Source: an uncultured Candidatus Saccharibacteria bacterium
GTDB lineage: Bacteria; Patescibacteriota; Saccharimonadia; Saccharimonadales; 2-12-FULL-41-12
Direction: 5' to 3'
Assembly: GCA_964404795.1 (NCBI GenBank)
Contig: CAYOLI010000003.1
Coordinates: forward strand, 31,621-95,620
DNA length: 64,000 nucleotides
Every line of letters begins with the position of its first letter. Positions within the stretch are counted from its first letter, which is position 1. Made by a program: the position numbers and the translations under genes. The notes beneath the pieces are model-generated. The model saw only the letters and a program-made list of their open reading frames with translations. It ran no database searches and was not told the origin of the DNA. Shown here piece after piece: positions 5,297 to 29,882 of the stretch.

Positions 5297-5373
5297 GCAC
5301 CCGTAGCTCAGTGGATTAGAGCACTGGTCTTCGGAACCAGGTGTCGTAGGTTCGAATCCTACCGGGTGTACCA
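5297..5373 (+). tRNA. tRNA-Arg (anticodon TCG)
   Basis: GCACCCGTAGCTCAGTGGATTAGAGCACTGGTCTTCGGAACCAG...GGTTCGAATCCTACCGGGTGTACCA. Anticodon stem CTGGT/ACCAG, loop CTTCGGA, CCA encoded. Confidence 0.9.
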
Positions 5374-5381
5374 ATAGTATC

Positions 5382-5458
5382 GGGCCATTAGCTCAGCTGG
5401 TTAGAGCACCTGCCTCTTAAGCAGGGTGTCCAGGGTTCGAGTCCCTGATGGCCCTCCA
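5382..5458 (+). tRNA. tRNA-Lys (anticodon CTT)
   Basis: GGGCCATTAGCTCAGCTGGTTAGAGCACCTGCCTCTTAAGCAGG...GGTTCGAGTCCCTGATGGCCCTCCA. Anticodon loop CTCTTAA, CCA encoded. Confidence 0.9.
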
Positions 5459-13836: not shown

Positions 13837-16440
13837 TTAACGCAGTTTTACTGCATCGTCCTCTTTTAACATGTAGCTGTCTTGTTCAACGGTTTTCGAT
13901 GTTAAATTGGTTTTTTCTACAACTGATCCACCGAGTAGCTTGTTTTTGTCCGATTTCGTTTTACGTTTTCTGGTGCGTTTTCTTTTTCTTGGGGTAGTGG
14001 TTGGTGCCATTTCGGGCTTTAGCTCTAGCTTTCTCTCTATAAACTCGGGGTTGGTTGCTGGTTTGTCGGCTACAACAGCAGTATTAGTTGGTTTTTTTGC
14101 TTTTTGCTTGGTCGCAGTTGGCTTTATTTTTGACGTATCCAGATTATGCCTAGCGTTGATATATTCCTCCACCTCTGTTACAGATAGTGCATATTTTTTT
14201 CGACTCTGATCTATGATGGTTTCCGAATAATCTTGCCCATATTCTTCAAGATCGGTTGTAATGGCTGAGAAGGCCTGTGCCTTTTCTCCGTTAATGGTCA
14301 TACTAATTACAAAACTGCGGTTGTGCATGTGTACTAGATCGTGCTCGCTAAATTTGGGTTCGAAGTATTTAAGCATGATCCTGGCATCATCAGCACTGGT
14401 TCTAAAGGATATAATCGACCCTACGTTGCCAAAAACAGCATCTTTTACACTTTGCATCATCTGGGCGGTGTATTGGTTGGCCACCGTAAGGTTAAGGCCA
14501 TATTTCCTCGCTTCGGACAAAATGGTTGCAAAAGAATCGGTTGCAAAATTTTGGAACTCGTCTACATATAGGTAAAAAGGTATACGTTCATTAGGTGGTA
14601 TGTCTGCACGGCTCATGGCAGCCATCTGTATTTTGGTTACCATCAGTGCTCCTAGAAGTCCAGCATTATCTTCGCCTATAAGACCACGAGAGAGGTTAAC
14701 AATTAGTATTTTTTGGTAGTCCATAATCTCACGAATGTTAAAACTGCCTCTCGGTTGGCCAATGATGTTTCTAACCAGTGGGTTGGCGGTAAAAGCCCCA
14801 ATTTTGTTCAGAACTGGGGCAACCGCTTCGGCCGCAAATTTGTCGTTGTAGCTGGCAAATTCGACAGTCCAGAAGTTTTGTACAACTGGGTCGTTAACGT
14901 ACGTTAGCACCTCTTCTCTAAACTTTTTATCGGTTAAGATGCGGGTGATATCCAGCATTGTGGCCTCTGGGTAATCGAGCAGTGCCAGTATGCTGTAGCG
15001 CAAAATGTACTCTAGTCGTGGCCCCCAGGAGTCAAACATTCTTTTTAATACCCCAATCAGTTCAGAGCAGGCATGAGTTCGCAATTTGGGGTCAGTTACT
15101 TCTAAAGGGTTAAACCCTATCGGATAATCGCTGTCTGCCGGATTAAAATAGATAACGTCGTTTACTCTGTTGGCTGGAATACGTTTAAGTACATTTAGTG
15201 CATAATCTCCGTGAGGATCGATTACGGCAAAGCCCTGTCCGTCTACAATGTCCGAAAGGGTTAACAGCTCTAATAAACCCGACTTACCAGCGCCAGTTTG
15301 GCCAATAATGTACAGATGACGACCTCTGTCAGATCTTGGTAGACCAAATAAGGTGTTATAGCCCCTAAAGTTGGTGTGCGCCATCATGCTAACTTCTGAG
15401 GATTTTGTAACTGGCAGATTAGCTGGTGGCTCGGCAGTTGTAGCGTTTGCCCAGAGGATATTTGGGGTTTCTACGTTAGTATGGGGCAGATGGTATAAAC
15501 TGGCTAGCTCTTCTATATTAAGAGTCATACTTTTTGCCCCTAATAATCTGTTTTGATAAGATTTAACACTGCTTAATCCCGTTTGCACCTTGCTAGAGCT
15601 AAAACCGTTTAAATAGGTCGAATTGAACTGTTTAAACCCTGCTACTATGGACTGCAAGCGCATTTGTGCCTGCGAATCGGTAGAATTACCAAGATAGATA
15701 ATCCTAACCGCTGCTGAGTACGCCAGTTTGTGGCTCTTCTCCTCCGATGCGGAGGCCCGTGCAGATTCATGTTCGACCAACTTAGGTGTTTGTGACTGCT
15801 TTTGCTCGGGCGGAGCGCTTAGAGCACCCAGTAGCCCTACGTATTGGCTGGAGTTAATTCCTCCACTACCGCGAATGGACTGCGAATAGCGCTCACTCTT
15901 CTTGTACCAGCCGTTTTTGGCTGGTTGGACTACCACCTGTATCCAGGCACTTTCATCTGGGGCAAACTGAGCTAAACTGGCGGTGATTCCAGCCAGCGGA
16001 TCTACCTCAAAACTAGGAAATGTCTTGATTGGTAAGGGGTCTGGCGCAATTAGCTTTAACTCGGTCGAGATGGTGTGTTTGCCACTATTTGGTAGCCGAG
16101 AGTAGTCGTCTACCTCTGATATCTCTACATTTGGGTATTGGGCATATATTTGGTCTTGAACGTATTGTTTTAGTCGTGTAGGGCACCAGACAAAGAAGTT
16201 AATTTGACCACTTATAGTAGCAATTTCGAAACTAATCCTATCGTGCACGGCAGAGGTAAAGAGTCCACTAGATTGCTTGGTAAGCAGTCCATGTATAGCC
16301 GCAAGCATCTGTTCGGCTGCCAACTCCTTTTTCTCGTTATTACGGGGTACTTTCAACAGTAAAACAGAGGTATCTTCCGTTATCTGGCCTTGCTTTTTCT
16401 TAAATAACATTGTATGCATTATATCACTATGCTTATGCAA
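13837..16440 (-). CDS. VirD4/TraG/TraD-like (type IV coupling protein-like) P-loop ATPase with a large N-terminal domain and a basic tail
   Basis: Walker A IIGQTGAGKSG, FAVIDPHGDY, Walker B-like FYLYVDEFQNFAT and LNLTVANQY. C-terminal tail is rich in K/R (PRKRKRTRKRKTK). A TATAAT sits 7 nt before the third ATG (16410), so a leaderless start there is possible. Confidence 0.65.
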   Translation of the reverse strand: MHKHSDIMHTMLFKKKQGQITEDTSVLLLKVPRNNEKKELAAEQMLAAIHGLLTKQSSGLFTSAVHDRISFEIATISGQINFFVWCPTRLKQYVQDQIYAQYPNVEISEVDDYSRLPNSGKHTISTELKLIAPDPLPIKTFPSFEVDPLAGITASLAQFAPDESAWIQVVVQPAKNGWYKKSERYSQSIRGSGGINSSQYVGLLGALSAPPEQKQSQTPKLVEHESARASASEEKSHKLAYSAAVRIIYLGNSTDSQAQMRLQSIVAGFKQFNSTYLNGFSSSKVQTGLSSVKSYQNRLLGAKSMTLNIEELASLYHLPHTNVETPNILWANATTAEPPANLPVTKSSEVSMMAHTNFRGYNTLFGLPRSDRGRHLYIIGQTGAGKSGLLELLTLSDIVDGQGFAVIDPHGDYALNVLKRIPANRVNDVIYFNPADSDYPIGFNPLEVTDPKLRTHACSELIGVLKRMFDSWGPRLEYILRYSILALLDYPEATMLDITRILTDKKFREEVLTYVNDPVVQNFWTVEFASYNDKFAAEAVAPVLNKIGAFTANPLVRNIIGQPRGSFNIREIMDYQKILIVNLSRGLIGEDNAGLLGALMVTKIQMAAMSRADIPPNERIPFYLYVDEFQNFATDSFATILSEARKYGLNLTVANQYTAQMMQSVKDAVFGNVGSIISFRTSADDARIMLKYFEPKFSEHDLVHMHNRSFVISMTINGEKAQAFSAITTDLEEYGQDYSETIIDQSRKKYALSVTEVEEYINARHNLDTSKIKPTATKQKAKKPTNTAVVADKPATNPEFIERKLELKPEMAPTTTPRKRKRTRKRKTKSDKNKLLGGSVVEKTNLTSKTVEQDSYMLKEDDAVKLR

Positions 16441-16495: not shown

Positions 16496-16524
16496 TTGAC
16501 AAAATATAATGTTTGTGGTAAATT
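16496..16524 (+). promoter_or_regulatory. Strong sigma70-type promoter (TTGACA-N17-TAAATT with an extended -10 TG)
   Basis: TTGACA at 16496-16501, a 17-nt spacer ending TGG, and TAAATT at 16519-24. It is the only good plus-strand promoter in the 500-nt gap upstream of the 16971 gene. Confidence 0.6.
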
Positions 16525-16529
16525 GTAAT

Positions 16530-16970
16530 CATCGTTTCAAGTGGTGGGGTGGAGCTCACAAGCAGATTCGATAGCAAATTAACAATTTATAAAAACAAGC
16601 TAGATAGTCATGGGTTTTTAATCCTGGTTGAGATTCACTCAATTCTTTGAATTGCCAGACCCACACCTCTACAGGGTTTAACCCTGTAAACAACTCCCAC
16701 AAGGTTAAACCCTGTAGAAGGGGGTGGGGTGTTTGGAGTTTGCGGAATTGAGTGAAGCTCCTAGTTGATAAAAAATCCTAATAAACCCGACTACTATTAA
16801 ACAACACTCTCACTGATACAGAGTACCTTTATAACTGTGGACGATGCGTTTTGCTAGTAATAATTTGCTAGTAGCACGCATCGCCCAGAAGGGTCTTTTG
16901 TACTCAGTGAACTGATCACTCACTGTTTTAGGCAATCATGCCATTTAGACACCTTGAAGGAGGTGGAGAA
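16530..16970 (+). promoter_or_regulatory. About 440-nt structured 5' leader or independent ncRNA upstream of the secreted-protein gene
   Basis: Nested long-range pairings: 16632-16645 with 16745-16758, and 16655-16678 with 16708-16736. These compete with local hairpins at 16671-16687 and 16701-16717. There is also a hairpin at 16839-16886 and a terminator-like stem CAGTGA/TCACTG plus TTTT at 16905-16929, just before the RBS. Confidence 0.5.
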
Positions 16971-18176
16971 ATGATCATTTGCAAGAACAGGATCAAGGTC
17001 GCCTCCTGGGCGATCACCCTTATCATCACGACGCTTGCGTTTGTGATGATGGCTAACACGGCTTCAGCAAATAGTCGAGGTCAGTGTAACGTGTCACCTG
17101 GCAACACGGTGACTTCCACCAGTGAATGGCTCGGCGTCCTCCGCAAGGAAGGCGTTACCGGACAGGTAGGACGAGTATTCAACTCCGCAGGATATCGGTC
17201 TTATGACCAAAATCTTCGGCAGTGGATGAGTCAACGTGTCATTCGTACGAAGTCCCACCGTTCATTCCGAGCAGTGGATTACGGTTGTCGGGGCGGCAAC
17301 CTCTTTTCGGTAGGAATTCGTTCCTACGGGAAGGGCAAGCAGATCTTTGTGGTTATGCCTTTGAAATACTCAAAGGCGGACTTTCGCACTCGAAAGAGTG
17401 GAGGTTACACCAAAAAGGTCGCTATTTCGGTGAAGGTGATTGGTCTTTCTGATTGCGGAAATCCCGTGATTGGAACCACCACTATCATCGTTTGGGTCAA
17501 GGGTAGTAAACCCAGCAGTCCAAGCAAGCCGAAGCCGACCCCCAAGCCGACTCCAGCTCCGACCCCCGAGGTTGTGGTGAGTTGTCCTACCGGTACGAAC
17601 TGGAATGGAAGTCAGTGCGTTGGCAATGTAAACCAGGCCGAGCAGGACTGCCGTGCAACTGTTGGTGGCACATGGAATGGAGACATGTGTGTCAATACTC
17701 AGACCAACAACAATTGTGGCAACACGAATGTTGGGTCCGGTAACAATGCATCTGGGGACAACTGCAACACGACGAACATTTGTTCGAATGTTAACAGCCC
17801 TGCAGGTGTCGTCAATTGCACGGTCCCGCCTCAGGCGAAGTCAATCAAAATTACCTCATCGGTGACTTTGAATGATATCCCTGTAGGGAAGAACTCAGGA
17901 CCATTTACCCTTACGGTGAATGCTTCTGAGAGTGGCGGTAGTGTTACTGTTGACCCCGGGATTGGTGCTGTCAGCAAGTGTGACAGCACGACGCCTGTTG
18001 CTTCGGCAACATTTTCATCGCTCCCTGCTGGGAATTCGGAGTTGTGCGTTATTTTTTACGCACCCTCTGACCCGGCAAGGCCTACAAGTATGACGATCTC
18101 TATGGTCGCCACCCTCGGCAGTTCCAGCGACATCAAGTCGCAAACATTCGCAATCACCTACCCGGTTCGTCCGTAG
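16971..18176 (+). CDS. Secreted Cys-rich protein with a Pro/Thr/Lys linker; compositionally foreign (GC-rich)
   Basis: Strong RBS GAAGGAGGTGGAGAA before the ATG at 16971 (the ORF opens at 16938). Signal peptide MIICKNRIKVASWAITLIITTLAFVMMANTASA. Linker SKPSSPSKPKPTPKPTPAPTPE. Cys-rich NxC repeats. Clearly more GC-rich than its neighbours. Confidence 0.75.
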   Translation: MIICKNRIKVASWAITLIITTLAFVMMANTASANSRGQCNVSPGNTVTSTSEWLGVLRKEGVTGQVGRVFNSAGYRSYDQNLRQWMSQRVIRTKSHRSFRAVDYGCRGGNLFSVGIRSYGKGKQIFVVMPLKYSKADFRTRKSGGYTKKVAISVKVIGLSDCGNPVIGTTTIIVWVKGSKPSSPSKPKPTPKPTPAPTPEVVVSCPTGTNWNGSQCVGNVNQAEQDCRATVGGTWNGDMCVNTQTNNNCGNTNVGSGNNASGDNCNTTNICSNVNSPAGVVNCTVPPQAKSIKITSSVTLNDIPVGKNSGPFTLTVNASESGGSVTVDPGIGAVSKCDSTTPVASATFSSLPAGNSELCVIFYAPSDPARPTSMTISMVATLGSSSDIKSQTFAITYPVRP

Positions 18177-18244
18177 TTAGGTGGCTAAACCACAACATTC
18201 TAGAAAGGATGTGATGCCATTGTTTGTTTAATAGTTCATAGATC

Positions 18245-18314
18245 GGGTAACTGGTCACTTATATTTTTTGTTGAGCATATGCTCCGAAAAATCCCTAAGT
18301 GACCAGTTTTACCC
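18245..18314. repeat. Long inverted repeat enclosing a 12-bp perfect palindrome
   Basis: GGGTAACTGGTCACTTA ... TAAGTGACCAGTTTTACCC are 17-nt arms with a 2-nt bulge. They flank GAGCATATGCTC. The repeat lies between the GC-rich gene and the LPXTG gene. Confidence 0.7.
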
Positions 18315-18422
18315 AAGTTCATTGAATCATTAAAAACCAGTGTCTATCTGGCTTGCCAAAGATCAAACATTTTGTAGATTGAATTTTTATTTTAACCATT
18401 AATTTTTAAGAAGGAGAAGGTC

Positions 18423-19370
18423 ATGAAAAACCTTAAGAAATTTGCTTCTGCTACAACAGTTGCTGTTGTTGCAATCTTTGCTTCTGCTACCGTTTTTGCT
18501 GGTAGCCCGGGGCAATTGGCCGGTGGTGATAACTACTTGGCAAAAAATTTAACTAAAGGTGGCGATTACTCAAACAACGTTAGCGCTACTTGTGACGATA
18601 GCGTTCAATACAGTATGCAAATAAGCAATACTCAATTTGGCGCATTAAATAATGTAACTATGAAAGCATCTTTGCCAACAAATGGTGGCGTAAGCACTGC
18701 TGTAGTTACTACCGATTTGGGTGGTCAATCAGGCACCACTGACACTACATCAGTGACCTTGCCAGCTAACGCCAAGCAAGTTTTGGTAAACGGTTCTACC
18801 ACTTTATACGATGGTAACGGTAATGTTATAAAAACTTTACCTGACACTATTGTAAGTGGTGTCAACATTGGTACTCTTGCTGGTTCTACAACTGAGTTTG
18901 TCAACTTTAAAGTTAAAGTTGACTGTCCCAAGGAGCCCCCAGTAATTTCTACTGGAGCTTGTAAGTTGGTAAACGTAAATGTTAGCGATAACCGAAAAGT
19001 AACTGTATCAATCGATACAGTAGTAAACAATGCTACAATTGTTGGTTACAAAACTGACTTTGGTGATGGCACAGTTGCCAACACTCAGACCTCTAGCCAT
19101 GTTTATGCTAAAGACGGAACATACAAAATTGTTTCTAGCGTAAATGTAAAATATGCCGATGGTCACACCGAGTGGAAAACGGCTGATGCTTGTTCTAAGA
19201 GCGTAACGTTTACTCCTAATGAGGAGCCAGTTGTTACTCCTGTAACTCCAGCTACCCCAGAGGCATTGCCAGAGACAGGTGCTGGTAGTGTAGTTGCTCT
19301 CTTTACCGTAGTTAGTGCAGTAGCAAGTATTGCCTACTCGATTGTTAGCCGACGCTTGAGTCGTCAGTAA
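18423..19370 (+). CDS. LPXTG-anchored cell-wall surface protein with a PKD-like domain
   Basis: RBS AAGAAGGAGAAGG. Signal peptide. PKD-like DFGDGTVANTQTSSHVYAKDGTYKIV. C-terminal sorting signal LPETG, followed by a hydrophobic helix and RRLSRQ. Confidence 0.85.
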   Translation: MKNLKKFASATTVAVVAIFASATVFAGSPGQLAGGDNYLAKNLTKGGDYSNNVSATCDDSVQYSMQISNTQFGALNNVTMKASLPTNGGVSTAVVTTDLGGQSGTTDTTSVTLPANAKQVLVNGSTTLYDGNGNVIKTLPDTIVSGVNIGTLAGSTTEFVNFKVKVDCPKEPPVISTGACKLVNVNVSDNRKVTVSIDTVVNNATIVGYKTDFGDGTVANTQTSSHVYAKDGTYKIVSSVNVKYADGHTEWKTADACSKSVTFTPNEEPVVTPVTPATPEALPETGAGSVVALFTVVSAVASIAYSIVSRRLSRQ

Positions 19371-19788: not shown

Positions 19789-19863
19789 GGCCTCATCGTC
19801 TAACGGTTAGGACACCGGGTTTTCATCCCGGCAATAGGGGTTCGATTCCCCTTGAGGTCACCA
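19789..19863 (+). tRNA. tRNA-Glu (anticodon TTC)
   Basis: GGCCTCATCGTCTAACGGTTAGGACACCGGGTTTTCATCCCGGCAATAGGGGTTCGATTCCCCTTGAGGTCACCA. Anticodon loop TTTTCAT. Possible promoter TTCAGA-N17-TACAAT at 19748-19776. Confidence 0.9.
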
Positions 19864-29489: not shown

Positions 29490-29882
29490 TGGTGGAGCTG
29501 GCGGGTACTACCCCCGCGTCCATCGGATTTACTGTGACTAGCCGTCTTCGTACATAGTTTATTTAAAAAAGTTTCTTTACTATTTCGTTAATAAAAATAA
29601 ACAAAAACTAACAAGATAGTGCACTCAATATTTTTTAAGAGCAATCATTTGAGAGACGATACTCCGTAGCCAGTAGATATGACACACAAACTAATTCTTT
29701 CTGGCGAGAATTAGGTGTGGCTGTAGTGATTAAGCTACAGCTGGTGCGAAAGCTGGCATGGTAAACATGCTAGCTAATCGCTGAGTAAATGATTTTGCAT
29801 TTATTCGGTTTATCTATAACGCTGATAAGCGGTACGCAAGCTAATCTGTAAATGTCCAATGTCGAGCTTAAAATTCAGCCCC
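29490..29882 (-). ncRNA. ssrA: tmRNA (SsrA)
   Basis: 5' end is GGGGCTGAATTTTAAGCTCGAC. 3' end is GGACGCGGGGGTAGTACCCGCCAGCTCCACCA, a tRNA-Ala-like acceptor with CCA. Internal tag frame at 29798-29730: GCA... AKSFTQRLASMFTMPAFAPAVA, then TAA. Confidence 0.9.

Follow-up and report, generated by a model that had tools for sequence, protein, structure and literature searches.

A Conserved Saccharibacterial 5′ Leader with a Putative rRNA-Style Leader–Trailer Helix around the First Cistron of a Predicted Surface-Protein Operon

Introduction

What purpose would a bacterium have for some 440 nucleotides of highly structured, untranslated RNA in front of a single secreted protein? This question is raised by positions 16496-16970 of the window, which is the whole 64,000-nucleotide stretch of Candidatus Saccharibacteria DNA that was analysed. 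In the original prediction, the region was regarded as typical of a riboswitch, an attenuator or a stand-alone small RNA, with mutually exclusive pairings and a terminator-like hairpin close to the ribosome-binding site. All elements named there are found in the sequence, either exactly or within 2 nt of the coordinates given. They are, however, not the conserved ones, and those that are conserved point to pairing with a region downstream of the open reading frame. The best reading, to which we assign a probability of roughly 0.6, is that the region serves as 5′ leader to an operon of two surface-protein genes, the transcript of which would form a leader–trailer helix in the style of rRNA operons around its first mRNA cistron; from the comparative data we infer the formation of the helices in vivo, the participation of Nus factors and RNase III, and the outcome for the two genes.

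Promoter, Leader, and Genes of the Predicted Operon

The promoter is of the sigma-70 type and occupies positions 16496-16524 of the forward strand. It comprises TTGACA (16496-16501), a 17-nt spacer with TG at 16516-17, and TAAATT (16519-16524) in the arrangement TG-n-TAAATT, reaching a score of 10/12 with the TG included. Transcription is predicted to start at about 16531, while GGAGG is located at 16959-16963 and the ATG start codon at 16971, so that the proposal of a near-consensus promoter firing into an untranslated leader of about 440 nt is borne out. A perfect TTGACA is present at the equivalent place in all 44 family members (see below) for which upstream sequence is available, 64-227 nt upstream of the conserved core, and the promoter is also kept in loci L003, L002, and L123-L125. 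Folding of the segment 16530-16975 yields -174.5 kcal/mol on the plus strand, compared with -110.5 ± 6.2 kcal/mol for shuffled sequences (z = -10.4), and -146.7 on the minus strand (z = -7.6); the structure therefore greatly exceeds chance expectation, the more so on the plus strand. These values and the family-wide TTGACA support the assignment as a promoter-driven, highly structured, non-coding 5′ leader.

Gene 1 (16971-18176, plus strand) encodes a 401-amino acid secreted protein with a signal peptide, for which no match was obtained in Pfam, NCBIfam, or the PDB. It is the cistron that the long-range helices described below would enclose. Gene 2 (18423-19370, plus strand) encodes a 315-amino acid, LPETG-anchored surface protein with a beta-sandwich and PKD; the two genes are separated by a stretch in which no terminator was detected. 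Homologues of gene 2 fall into 179 clusters, and Pfam, NCBIfam, a PDB sequence search, an AlphaFold model, and Foldseek assign to it only PKD and Ig-like domains.

A Conserved RNA Family of Saccharibacteria

Judged by sequence comparison, the leader is a member of a widespread, conserved Saccharibacteria RNA family without an entry in Rfam 15. Scanning with a 19-mer pattern recovered about 47 non-redundant metagenomic loci (plus relatives) with the same blocks in the same order, namely, the TTGACA promoter, a boxA-like UUAACAAU motif, the nearly invariant block (G)CAAACUAGAUAGUCAUGGGUCUUUAAG, termed block C, a covarying hairpin, and the CCGACUAC anchor; three matches of the 19-mer on viral contigs turned out to be unrelated coding sequence and were discarded. 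A covariance model built from 35 other family members, with the window left out (CM R1), matches the window from 16592 onward with 37.3 bits (E = 1.7e-5) and, in addition, the minus strand at 18234-18359 with 21.2 bits. The core of the family, in which (G)CAAACUAGAUAGUCAUGGGUCUUUAAG is followed by the P3 hairpin with its 2-nt bulge and GAG/CUC and then by ACCCA and the anchor, is fully represented in the window: block C deviates from the family pattern by one mismatch in 22 nt, the base of P3 reads CUGG-UU-GAG...CUC-CUAG as the core demands, the CCGACUAC anchor is located at 16788-95, and the UUAACAAU motif lies between promoter and core in the form of TTAACAAT (16580-16587). The reverse complements of block C and of the anchor follow after one signal-peptide ORF, and an LPXTG gene comes next.

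The scan against Rfam 15 gave no match in the window region, either at the gathering threshold or at E <= 10, and no family match in 16 other family loci, which agrees with the earlier statement that no known aptamer could be recognised. What the scans of the window, the permissively scanned region, and the 16 loci did return were tRNA, tmRNA, and chance matches to miRNA-type hairpins. Full-text searching of the literature found no description of the element. Concerning its association with neighbouring genes, the VirD4-like gene upstream is accompanied by the element in only two (L002 and L003) of 25 genome loci, and a tblastn search of the VirD4-like ATPase against the family loci found nothing; since that gene is mostly found without the element, the leader travels with the downstream gene and not with the ATPase. 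Copies of the operon occur in tandem arrays. Contigs often break near the element.

The 5′ domain of the leader (16531-16595, plus strand) carries a G-rich GGUGGAG motif (16541-16559) and the boxA-like sequence UUAACAAUUUA (16580-16590), which ends 5-6 nt upstream of the leader strand of helix A; GGTGGAG as well as TTAACAAT recur in family members. Compared with the E. coli consensus ugcucuuuaacaa, UUAACAAUUUA matches the 3′ part of boxA and the adjoining spacer without deviation, and the domain shares an 11-nt identity with the boxA-spacer sequence ugcucuuuaacaauuua of the E. coli rrn operons (PMC2724277). The conservation is confined to the 3′ half of boxA and the spacer, while the GCUCUU part varies across the family. 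It is in the non-conserved 5′ part of boxA that an E. coli point mutation reported to abolish formation of the antitermination complex is located. Counted from the start of the boxA-like motif, block C follows after 18-29 nt in short-form members, among them the window with 21 nt, and after 47-140 nt in other members, in which a hairpin is inserted. Among the fetched loci, no rRNA operon was found. By analogy with rRNA operons, the boxA-like element may recruit Nus factors.

Two Putative Helices between Leader and Trailer

In the window, block C (16596-16622, plus strand; CAAGCUAGAUAGUCAUGGGUUUUUAAU), which is delineated by the 19-mer family scan and by CM R1, is complementary to a sequence about 1.7 kb downstream. 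This trailer strand (18329-18355, plus strand; AUUAAAAACCAGUGUCUAUCUGGCUUG) is the reverse complement of block C, and the two would constitute helix A with 23 Watson-Crick pairs, 2 G·U pairs, and 2 mismatches (duplex energy -37.1 as opposed to -19.7 ± 2.8 for shuffles). A second helix, designated C, would be formed from the anchor region (16785-16806, plus strand; ACCCGACUACUAUUAAACAA), which contains the conserved CCGACUAC/CCAACUAC anchor, and a trailer strand (UUGUUUGUUUAAUAG..UCGGGU) at 18221-18248 of the plus strand, 45 nt after the stop codon. Between the two trailer strands lies the intercistronic hairpin D (18249-18320, plus strand) as the mirror counterpart of P3, and gene 2 begins 67 nt after the helix A trailer strand. 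The predicted helix around the enclosed RNA exceeds 17 bp, as does that of rrn operons; what is enclosed is the 401-amino acid ORF, and rRNA is present neither in the window nor at any of the loci.

The same organization is found in all 34 family loci with enough sequence. Block C and the anchor are complementary to two segments after a single signal-peptide ORF, the reverse-complement copy of block C is located 1.3-2.0 kb downstream (it is also present in L123-L126), and between both copies there is one homologous sense ORF of 314-586 amino acids. A homologous LPXTG gene follows 28-80 nt after the trailer in 33 of the 34, and in most loci no more than about 15 nt separate the stop codon from the beginning of the helix C trailer.

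Covariation is evident for both helices. In a 17-bp test of helix A, 96.8% of the cells are paired and 12 cells carry double changes against 2.6 in the controls; 0 of 500 shuffles did as well, and slid controls reach 26-41%. The near-invariance of helix A exceeds what pairing needs and would also fit a sequence-specific DNA site. For helix C, the column-wise pair count was dropped, the segments not being column-homologous, and cognate duplexes were compared with non-cognate ones instead; the cognate mean is -25.3 kcal/mol versus -16.6 kcal/mol, with the cognate partner ranking first in 14 of 33 loci. When leader and trailer are co-folded, the minimum free energy (MFE) structure contains both helices in 34/34 loci, with a mean gain of -29.4 kcal/mol. 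This includes the window (-253.8 versus -240.5 kcal/mol); its net gain amounts to only about -13 to -15 kcal/mol, and just two of the 34 loci gain less. Strands 1.7 kb apart would have to pair in competition with local folds and with ribosomes engaged in translation. In locus L076, inspection by eye revealed one position at which corresponding substitutions are found in the 5′ strand of stem P0, in block C, and in the trailer copy. A mini-ORF in block C (AUG GGU CUU UAA) was also considered; it has no Shine-Dalgarno (SD) sequence, is broken by CAA variants and by the AUA variant of L002, and was rejected.

RNA Pairing, DNA Inversion, or Separate Elements

An almost invariant inverted repeat of about 27 bp that borders one variable surface-protein gene, and does so at numerous loci from numerous species, calls to mind a site-specific recombination system. 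Block C and its copy would then be invertase or integrase sites, and the gene-1 cassette would flip or be mobilised, resulting in phase variation of the surface protein. Invariance beyond the needs of pairing is typical of protein-recognised sites, and the tandem operon arrays, together with contig breaks often near the element, would be compatible with such a process. Nevertheless, we consider it unlikely. While the repeats that should flank an invertible segment are there, the segment is not found in both orientations: gene 1 is inverted in none of 34 family loci and none of 4 relatives (0/38), with the qualification that assemblies represent the majority state only. Contigs of the same strain are collinear in 9 cases among the matches listed, and a 'GGG' variant is always found on the promoter side. 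The two copies are, moreover, unequally conserved, the 5′ copy (50-85 bits) much better than the 3′ copy (22-40 bits), and block C has no strong internal dyad symmetry, only ACTA-GA-TAGT. Among the called genes of L123-L126, no recombinase was found.

The substitutions themselves are strand specific. Within helix A, 27 transitions are G·U-compatible and 2 are of the A·C type, a count taken from related sequences, so that not all events are independent; of the 33 loci compared, 27 have a sense duplex that surpasses its antisense counterpart in stability (p = 8e-5). Helix C displays no such asymmetry in energy (-25.3 versus -25.2). The number of G·U pairs in helix A, 39 in the sense and 67 in the antisense direction, runs opposite to the transition count and was set aside, a putative explanation being that duplex prediction adds pairs outside the helix. 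Also, the second complementary pair, that of helix C, shows covariation specific to each locus, something for which an invertase would have no use. Four results thus favour pairing in the sense transcript over DNA inversion, i.e., the compensatory changes, the transition ratio of 27:2, the locus-specific covariation of helix C, and the fixed orientation of gene 1. The 3′ copy was also considered as the leader of an antisense transcript and rejected, a promoter being absent on that side.

Somewhat less probable still is that the complementarity is real, but that the elements at the two ends act separately and the 5′–3′ duplex never forms. In this case, the 3′ element might stabilise the intercistronic RNA, serve as a processing hairpin or partial terminator, or bind the same protein as the 5′ element. 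Each element does fold its own hairpin (P3 and hairpin D, resp.), the minus-strand score of CM R1 for the 3′ element reflects a mirror-image architecture, and pairing across a translated ORF is kinetically demanding. However, the reverse complement of an RNA-binding site is a different RNA site, the antisense side lacks a promoter, and neither the locus-specific covariation between anchor and trailer start nor the compensatory changes in helix A would be explained. Pairing of leader and trailer within one transcript remains the preferred reading.

The P2/P3 Hairpin and Its Palindromic Apex

Between block C and the anchor, covariation and the MFE structure define the local hairpin P2/P3 of the family core (16612-16778, plus strand). 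In P2, GGGUUUUU (16612-19, plus strand) pairs with AAAAAUCC (16771-78) in the MFE structure; P3 has the plus-strand base CUGG-UU-GAG ... CUC-CUAG mentioned above and carries at its apex a species-specific palindrome of 127 nt (16632-16758). RNAalifold on the raw MAFFT alignment yielded P2 only, with the hairpin out of register, and an explicit structure was used instead. Across 35 members, double changes occur in 8 of 12 P3 pairs, with 75 double-change cells versus 33.6 in shuffles; 84.5% of the cells are paired versus 76.7% in shuffles, none of 500 shuffles is as good, and slid controls reach 27-42%.

It is within the palindrome that the pairings stressed by the original prediction are located. 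The C-rich segment (16655-16678) does pair with the G-rich segment (16708-16736) in a duplex of -32.6 kcal/mol, and its extension by 16632-45 with 16745-58 appears in the MFE structure as well as in the list of inverted repeats. The local hairpins also exist, with ACAGGGTTTAACCCTGT at 16671-16687 as described and its second copy at 16699-16715 rather than at 16701-16717; ACAGGGTTTAACCCTGT palindromes have 6 matches where 0.17 are expected. The second G-rich copy (16541-16559), envisaged as a competitor for the C-rich strand, is present, but much weaker (-15.8 versus -32.6 kcal/mol). None of this is conserved: the long-range and local ACAGGGTT/AACCCTGT pairings lie inside a palindrome found only in this species, and comparative alignment with relatives reveals their absence from L123-L126, which are the nearest relatives, from L003 and L002, and from about 47 other members.

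The palindrome is a lineage-specific extension of the P3 apex. That it is instead an independent entity and the functional feature of the locus, either as an inserted palindromic or MITE-like element or as a stand-alone structured small RNA, is very improbable. It is true that the inverted repeat is near perfect and raises the stability of the fold, that 6 G·U pairs are present on its plus strand, and that its inner part mimics the 3′ half of the family. Yet a blastn search of the window and about 120 loci returned only the query itself, so that it is a single copy in the window with none in the fetched loci, unlike a multi-copy MITE. It is positioned precisely on the apex of P3, a hairpin of variable length among family members, the asymmetry between its strands is small (-71.5 versus -68.8 kcal/mol), and neither a promoter nor a terminator is seen inside it.

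The Leader Downstream of the Anchor

A long hairpin (module III; 16838-16887, plus strand) is found at this position in all members examined and is kept between the window and L124 with compensatory changes; the bulged hairpin originally placed at 16839-16886 is confirmed by it. The adjoining pre-SD domain (16889-16965, plus strand) can be closed by pairing of AAGGGUC (16889-95) with GACACCUU (16948-55), thereby enclosing two small hairpins at 16905-16925 and 16932-16943, the former being the 'terminator' of the original prediction. Alternatively, CACCUU can pair with the SD sequence GAGGUG (16960-65), and the SD-sequestering hairpin is part of the MFE structure. The family equivalent of the domain is CAGGGG ... 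CCCCUG-AGGAGG.

The sequence CAGTGA-N9-TCACTG-TTTT is indeed present at 16905-16929, but a terminator scan did not call it because of the 9-nt loop. Its stem is conserved in L124 with two compensatory pairs, while the U-run is absent from L124, L123, L125, and other members. Nothing resembling a conserved ligand pocket was found in the leader. The riboswitch, attenuator, or stand-alone small RNA of the original prediction is therefore unsupported, the pairings being species specific, the U-run not conserved, and a ligand pocket missing. That the C-rich and G-rich strands and the ACAGGGTT/AACCCTGT hairpins compete so as to terminate transcription at 16905-16929 before the ribosome-binding site can practically be dismissed, since, in spite of a very stable fold with alternative pairings, a hairpin maintained by compensatory pairs in L124, and a CACCUU able to sequester the SD sequence, the competing strands belong to the species-only palindrome with a weak alternative partner, the equivalent hairpins of other members lack U-runs and are not terminator-like, an Rfam aptamer is absent, and surface-protein genes downstream give no metabolic reason for sensing a ligand. 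Mutually exclusive pairing could nevertheless matter at another scale, namely, between the local stems P0, P1, and P2 on the one hand and the leader–trailer helices on the other.

Proposed Pathway

The conservation, complementarity, covariation, strand bias, and gene order observed among the loci are the basis of the following model. The transcript would comprise, in this order, the promoter-proximal boxA-like UUAACAAU domain, block C, the variable hairpin, the CCGACUAC anchor, the long hairpin, the pre-SD domain, and gene 1, after which the intergenic region would present the anchor complement, a hairpin, and the block C complement in mirror order. The boxA-like element would recruit Nus-type factors, by which the long untranslated leader would be protected and its leader strand kept near RNA polymerase. 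During transcription of gene 1, the placeholder stems P0, P1, and P2 would retain block C and the anchor. Upon emergence of the trailer, block C and the anchor would switch to pairing with it, and helices A and C, about 25-27 bp and about 10-25 bp long, respectively, would give a four-way junction looping out gene 1 together with its ribosome-binding region. Eventually, RNase III would cut the long duplex, yielding three parts, namely, the 5′ domain, the mRNA of gene 1 with its ends paired, and the mRNA of gene 2, and this separation would set the relative stability and expression of the two proteins.

A more far-reaching version, which we advance tentatively and regard as rather doubtful in its entirety, is that Saccharibacteria have adopted the complete rRNA-operon design for protein genes, i.e., a strong promoter, a leader tethered to RNA polymerase through Nus factors and boxA, and the leader–trailer helix, with RNase III excising the gene-1 mRNA with base-paired ends and freeing the gene-2 mRNA. 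Ribosomes that terminate on gene 1 would open helix C, since its trailer starts at the stop codon or shortly behind it. If this were true, such opening could couple translation to the fate of the mRNA, and it could favour re-initiation in the manner of a bacterial 'closed-loop' mRNA.

Significance

Leader–trailer helices are a textbook feature of rRNA precursors. To our knowledge, no such helix conserved around a translated gene has been described before. Provided that the strands do pair in vivo, the family would be a natural test of the transcription complex as an RNA chaperone that loops nascent RNA, here with a non-ribosomal cargo, and would represent a further way to set the stoichiometry and stability of two surface proteins. 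A large protein family, secreted and cell-wall-anchored and so far uncharacterised, would also gain a regulatory signature; it belongs to CPR bacteria living as host-dependent epibionts, whose surface proteins plausibly matter for contact with host cells. For practical purposes, the family yields a ready covariance model for annotating such operons, and promoter, leader, and trailer make up a compact native expression cassette for the newly tractable Saccharibacteria.

Comparison with Known Systems

Inversion of DNA at multiple loci is known from the Mpi-controlled promoters of Bacteroides fragilis and from the Hin, Gin, and Cin segments. There, too, a segment is bordered by conserved inverted repeats (about 20-30 bp), and one genome has many such loci for surface structures. 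In those systems, however, both orientations occur, the repeats are equally conserved, and it is usually the promoter that inverts, whereas the present family is characterised by a fixed orientation (0/38), asymmetric conservation, and substitutions biased toward RNA wobble pairs.

Pairing between the 5′ and 3′ untranslated regions of single bacterial mRNAs has been described for icaR of S. aureus, where the 3′UTR pairs with the SD sequence and RNase III is involved, and for hbs of B. subtilis. These cases share with the element the intramolecular pairing between the ends of an mRNA, which affects translation or stability there. Their pairings are short and gene specific, and they are not known to have a conserved multi-locus family, leader machinery, or a bipartite four-way junction.

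Long, conserved, structured 5′ leaders before cell-surface genes are also found in processive antitermination, examples being the EAR RNA, the only one of them known to have an Rfam entry, the LoaP and UpxY leaders of surface-polymer operons, and phage put. As in those leaders, RNA polymerase plausibly depends on the structure to traverse a long untranslated stretch. Similarity in sequence or structure is lacking (the Rfam scan gave no match), and none of them is known to have a complementary trailer after the first gene.

The closest parallel is seen in the rRNA operons, as exemplified by E. coli rrn (PMC10250234, PMC4807359, PMC2724277). In Enterobacteriaceae, boxA is located 18-19 nt upstream of boxC; the latter belongs to the leader strand, which pairs with the trailer over more than 17 bp in a helix overlapping the RNase III site (PMC10250234). 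Both systems have a strong promoter followed by a hairpin and a boxA element, for which the boxA-like UUAACAAUUUA is the candidate counterpart here, shortly upstream of the leader strand; in both, the leader is complementary to a trailer about 1.3-2 kb downstream, and an interrupted helix of more than 17 bp, with leader hairpins between its two parts, brackets the enclosed RNA in rRNA operons and would do so here. A further gene follows the trailer on the same transcript, 23S in rRNA operons and gene 2 in the present case, for which cotranscription is predicted. The differences are that the cargo is a translated ORF with its own SD sequence instead of rRNA, that boxA is only partly conserved, and that helix A is nearly invariant across species, while the flanks of rRNA are variable. 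The element is rrn-like in design, albeit no rrn operon.

Locus and Neighboring Genes

Judged by the titles of related loci, the window is a genome segment of Saccharibacteria (TM7, CPR). A structured leader occupies the 530-nt gap separating two genes, namely, the upstream, divergent gene of a VirD4/TraD-like type IV coupling ATPase (13837-16419, minus strand; Pfam TrwB_AAD_bind and DUF87) and, on the plus strand, gene 1, which encodes a 401-aa signal-peptide protein (ATG at 16971, GGAGG at 16959-63). Together with the region after gene 1, this leader probably constitutes an rRNA-style leader–trailer bracket, conserved across Saccharibacteria, that encloses a surface-protein cistron.

Among the family loci, only the window and its relatives L002 and L003 have the ATPase gene beside the operon; T4SS genes of Saccharibacteria have been reported to be essential (PMC12857230). 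In the closest relatives L123 (1-1984) and L125 (1-2044), its place is taken by the gene of a 697-aa protein with PF01345 and PKD domains, and the operon is surrounded by other surface-protein genes. PF01345, listed as CLIPPER, is presumably the former DUF11. At the Rfam gathering threshold, the window matches comprise a tmRNA gene (29490-29882, minus strand) and six tRNA genes (1055-1128, 2016-2168, 5297-5455, 19789-19860) and nothing else. In several unrelated family loci, the leader is preceded by a tRNA gene, which is encoded on the other strand at a distance of a few hundred to about 2,400 nt (L069 607-678, L095 2279-2350, L061 1247-1318, and L072 566-637, all minus; L055 3389-3460, plus).

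The Leader in the Window and in Its Relatives

The original prediction had proposed a riboswitch or attenuator, or a stand-alone sRNA, for the leader, and all of the elements on which it drew were recovered, displaced by 2 nt at most. These are a promoter TTGACA-17-TAAATT with TG (score 10/12), C-rich and G-rich arms with their extension (duplex energy −32.6 kcal/mol), two ACAGGGTT-type palindromes, the second at 16699-16715, a bulged hairpin at 16838-16887, and CAGTGA-N9-TCACTG-TTTT at 16905-16929. The plus strand of the leader folds at −174.5 kcal/mol versus −110.5 ± 6.2 for shuffled sequences (z = −10.4), the minus strand more weakly (−146.7). Rfam 15 returned nothing in the leader region, either at the gathering threshold or at E ≤ 10, and no leader match in 16 other family members.

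Among 25 Saccharibacteria genomes fetched via the upstream ATPase gene, the leader region is common only to the two closest, L003 and L002, which share with the window the promoter, the G-rich GGTGGAG stretch, TTAACAATT, and the block CTAGATAGTCATGGGT; the long hairpin is not among these common features. Closer relatives were obtained via the downstream gene 2 (L123, L124, and L125/L126, with gene 2 identities of 77%, 67%, and 54%). Their leader is the same, with a length of roughly 535 nt; in alignment A4, the promoter, GAGGTGGA, TTAACAATT, and the near-invariant block C (16596-16622) are kept, as is the hairpin 16838-16887, with compensatory changes. Conservation extends to the small hairpin 16905-16925, for which L124 has ACGTGA/TCACGT in place of CAGTGA/TCACTG. 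The U-run 3′ of it is not conserved in L123–L126, where a short hairpin stands in for the 127-nt palindrome (16632-16758). The features supporting a riboswitch or attenuator are, therefore, species-specific. No second copy of the palindrome exists in the window or any fetched locus. It extends the apex of the variable hairpin P3, whose base in the window (CUGG-UU-GAG...CUC-CUAG) is canonical, and is a lineage-specific decoration; the original prediction picked out a real and striking structure, but for the wrong reason.

A Conserved Leader Family

When metagenomes were scanned for the pattern CTARRTAGTCATRGGTYTT, 88 loci were obtained, about 47 of which, after removal of redundancy, have one conserved order of elements in common. 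The promoter, 64-227 nt upstream, has a perfect TTGACA and an extended −10; it is followed by a 5′ domain containing a hairpin that presents GGUGGA(G/A), as well as GAGGUG beside a UUAACAAU motif, by the often present hairpin P0 (GUUUGC...GCAAAC), and by block C, (G)CAAACUAGAUAGUCAUGGGUCUUUAAG, which is almost invariant. Hairpin P3, in which a 2-nt bulge and GAG/CUC are conserved, leads to ACCCA and the anchor (CCGACUAC or CCAACUAC), after which come a near-perfect long hairpin and a pre-SD stem, CAGGGG...CCCCUG, adjoining the SD. By eye, the GGUGGA(G/A) of the 5′ domains (16541-16559 in the window) apparently lies in a hairpin loop. In many members, the SD-like GAGGUG is directly 5′ of UUAACAAU, with no start codon at SD spacing in the 5′ domains. 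Eight loci (L040, L043, L051, L054, L090, L099, L103, and L106), several of them from human-gut metagenomes, contain the 19-mer in another conserved context, TATTTAGTGTTCTATTC-CTAGGTAGTCATAGGTTTT-ATCAGTTACTTG, and are not family members.

In alignment A2 (35 sequences, window excluded), P3 covaries, two-sided changes occurring in 8/12 of its pairs, with 75 double-change cells versus 33.6 in shuffles, none of 500 shuffles being as good; 84.5% of the cells are paired versus 27-42% with the partner slid. The local stems P1 and P2 vary between G-C and G·U only, which fits an RNA on the plus strand. The covariance model R1, built from A2, matches the window element from 16592 on the plus strand (37.3 bits, E = 1.7e-5). 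It aligned to 16665-16700, inside the palindrome, and not to the true 3′ half at 16760-16796; the former segment, CTCTACAGGGTTTAACCCTGTAAACAACTCC, resembles the 3′ half of the canonical core (CUC, stem, ACCC, CAACUAC), a likeness that may be fortuitous or left over from a partial duplication.

A Mirror Copy in a Putative Two-Gene Operon

R1 also matches the minus strand at 18234-18359, directly after the gene 1 stop codon, and at least 20 loci have a weaker opposite-strand match 1.4-1.8 kb downstream. By direct search, a reverse-complement copy of GCAAACTAGATAGTCAT..GTCTTTAA was found 1.3-2.0 kb downstream in 34/34 loci (the window and the 33 family loci whose downstream sequence is 1.5 kb or longer), and L123–L126 likewise carry one. 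Without exception, the two copies flank a single ORF of 314-586 aa, which is in sense orientation and has a signal peptide. These gene 1 proteins form one loose superfamily (31/34 linked by BLASTP), with no relative in Pfam, NCBIfam, or PDB. Gene 2 starts 28-80 nt past the copy in 33/34 loci, is homologous to window 18423-19370, and encodes an LPXTG-anchored protein in whose N-terminus SPGQLAGG is conserved. The structure model of this protein comprises a beta-sandwich and a PKD domain besides the anchor; the source names of its 179 homologue clusters are only hypothetical or TIGR01451-type repeat proteins. A scan of the window detected no intrinsic terminator between the genes, and the spacer before gene 2 holds no credible separate promoter (best in the window, a 9-of-12 match at 18353-18380). 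In many family loci, a (C)UAUAAGGAG context is conserved before gene 2, 28-80 nt after the trailer strand; the window has UUUUUAAGAAGGAGAAGG instead (18395-18425).

The entire operon of leader, gene 1, trailer, and gene 2 also occurs in same-strand tandem arrays about 3 kb apart (L039 at 9219 and 12434, L109 at 159 and 3133, both plus; L072 at 3046 and 402, L070 at 4517 and 1787, both minus) and, therefore, is present within genomes as a paralogous family of several copies. The window, 64 kb long, contains a single copy.

Two Predicted Long-Range Helices

The complementarity between leader and trailer is bipartite. Helix A joins block C to its downstream copy (16596-16622 × 18329-18355 in the window) by 23 Watson-Crick pairs and 2 G·U, with 2 mismatches, at −37.1 kcal/mol versus −19.7 ± 2.8 for shuffled sequences. 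Across 29 distinct loci, its outer 17 bp are 96.8% paired (slid controls, 26-41%), and compensatory changes at four positions amount to 12 cells versus 2.6, a value reached in 0/500 shuffles. Helix C joins the anchor region to a GUAGUUGG-type segment opening the region downstream of the ORF (16785-16806 × 18221-18248 in the window); this trailer strand starts at the stop codon in about one-quarter of the loci, the median being roughly 11 nt past it. Helix C varies by locus and covaries, the cognate duplex averaging −25.3 kcal/mol versus −16.6 (sd 4.6) when leaders are combined with non-cognate trailers; in 14/33 loci, no partner ranked above the cognate one. When leader and intercistronic region were co-folded, the MFE structure held both helices in 34/34 loci (helix A, 24-30 bp; helix C, 8-35 bp), with a mean gain over separate folding of −29.4 kcal/mol (window, −253.8 versus −240.5 kcal/mol). 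The model predicts a four-way junction of helices A and C, P3, and hairpin D (18249-18320), from which gene 1 and its ribosome-binding region would be looped out. That the complementarity and the family membership are real is highly probable.

RNA Pairing versus DNA Repeats

We assign a probability of about 0.65 to the complementarity acting as RNA pairing in the transcript. Inverted repeats flanking a surface-protein gene might also be DNA-level recombination sites, which we consider improbable. Six results point instead to pairing in the sense transcript. In helix A, 27 inter-copy transitions are wobble-compatible (G or U in the 5′ copy) versus 2 of A·C type, at roughly equal opportunities and with the reservation that substitution events are phylogenetically non-independent; all 12 C>T differences fall one position beyond the helix. 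This strand bias recurs in stability, the sense duplex beating the antisense one in 27/33 loci (Wilcoxon p = 8e-5), and is absent from helix C, a point in favor of recombination sites, as is a near-invariance of helix A greater than pairing alone demands. A recombinase would be expected to treat its two sites equally, yet the 5′ copy scores 50-85 bits and the 3′ copy 22-40 bits with R1, and the copies differ consistently (CAU-GG-GUC versus CAU-YGU-GUC). Gene 1 is inverted relative to promoter and gene 2 in 0/34 loci and in 0/4 more, the nine same-strain contigs shown are collinear, and there is no promoter on the antisense side. Covariation, which a site-specific recombinase does not need, links block C to helix C and to the upstream placeholder P0; in L076, GUUUGU, ACAAAC, and the trailer copy are mutually matched. 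Membership tests placed the element neither with riboswitches, intrinsic-terminator attenuators, or MITEs nor, a single orientation being observed, with invertible segments.

Proposed Mechanism

For RNA pairing, we infer a competition of local with long-range pairing, a Nus-type role, and processing. Block C and the anchor would pair locally first, through P0 (GUUUGC/GCAAAC), P1 (UAGUC/GACUA), and P2 (UGGGU/ACCCA); these local partners look like the trailer strands, so the transcribed trailer can displace them. A boxA-like element, UUAACAAUUUA, exactly matches the 3′ portion of boxA and the spacer of E. coli rrn (CACugcucuuuaacaauuua; PMC2724277); short-form members, including the window, have it 18-29 nt before block C. 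In rrn operons, boxA precedes boxC by 18-19 nt. This boxC overlaps the RNase III site and belongs to the leader strand of a leader–trailer helix exceeding 17 bp; according to the proposed model, the antitermination complex keeps the leader strand by the RNA exit channel until the trailer has emerged (PMC10250234). An analogous Nus-type complex would shield the 200-450-nt untranslated leader and aid formation of helix A. The 25-27 bp duplex is a plausible RNase III substrate, cleavage of which would free the 5′ domain, a gene-1 mRNA with its ends held by helix C, and a gene-2 mRNA; the variable secreted and the conserved anchored protein could thereby reach different expression levels. The pre-SD domain may add a translational layer, CACCUU of the window pairing with either AAGGGUC or the SD. 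This specific Nus/RNase III scenario is tentative and rather doubtful.

Comparison with Known Systems

A description of the element was found neither in Rfam 15 nor in the full-text literature searched, and may exist outside those sources. Among known designs, the rRNA operon leader, with its leader–trailer helix, comes closest. The present element is not of that class, since the enclosed segment is an ORF and the conservation of boxA is partial. Interactions between 5′UTR and 3′UTR are known from icaR and hbs, from which the present element differs in being conserved, multi-locus, bipartite, and equipped with leader machinery.
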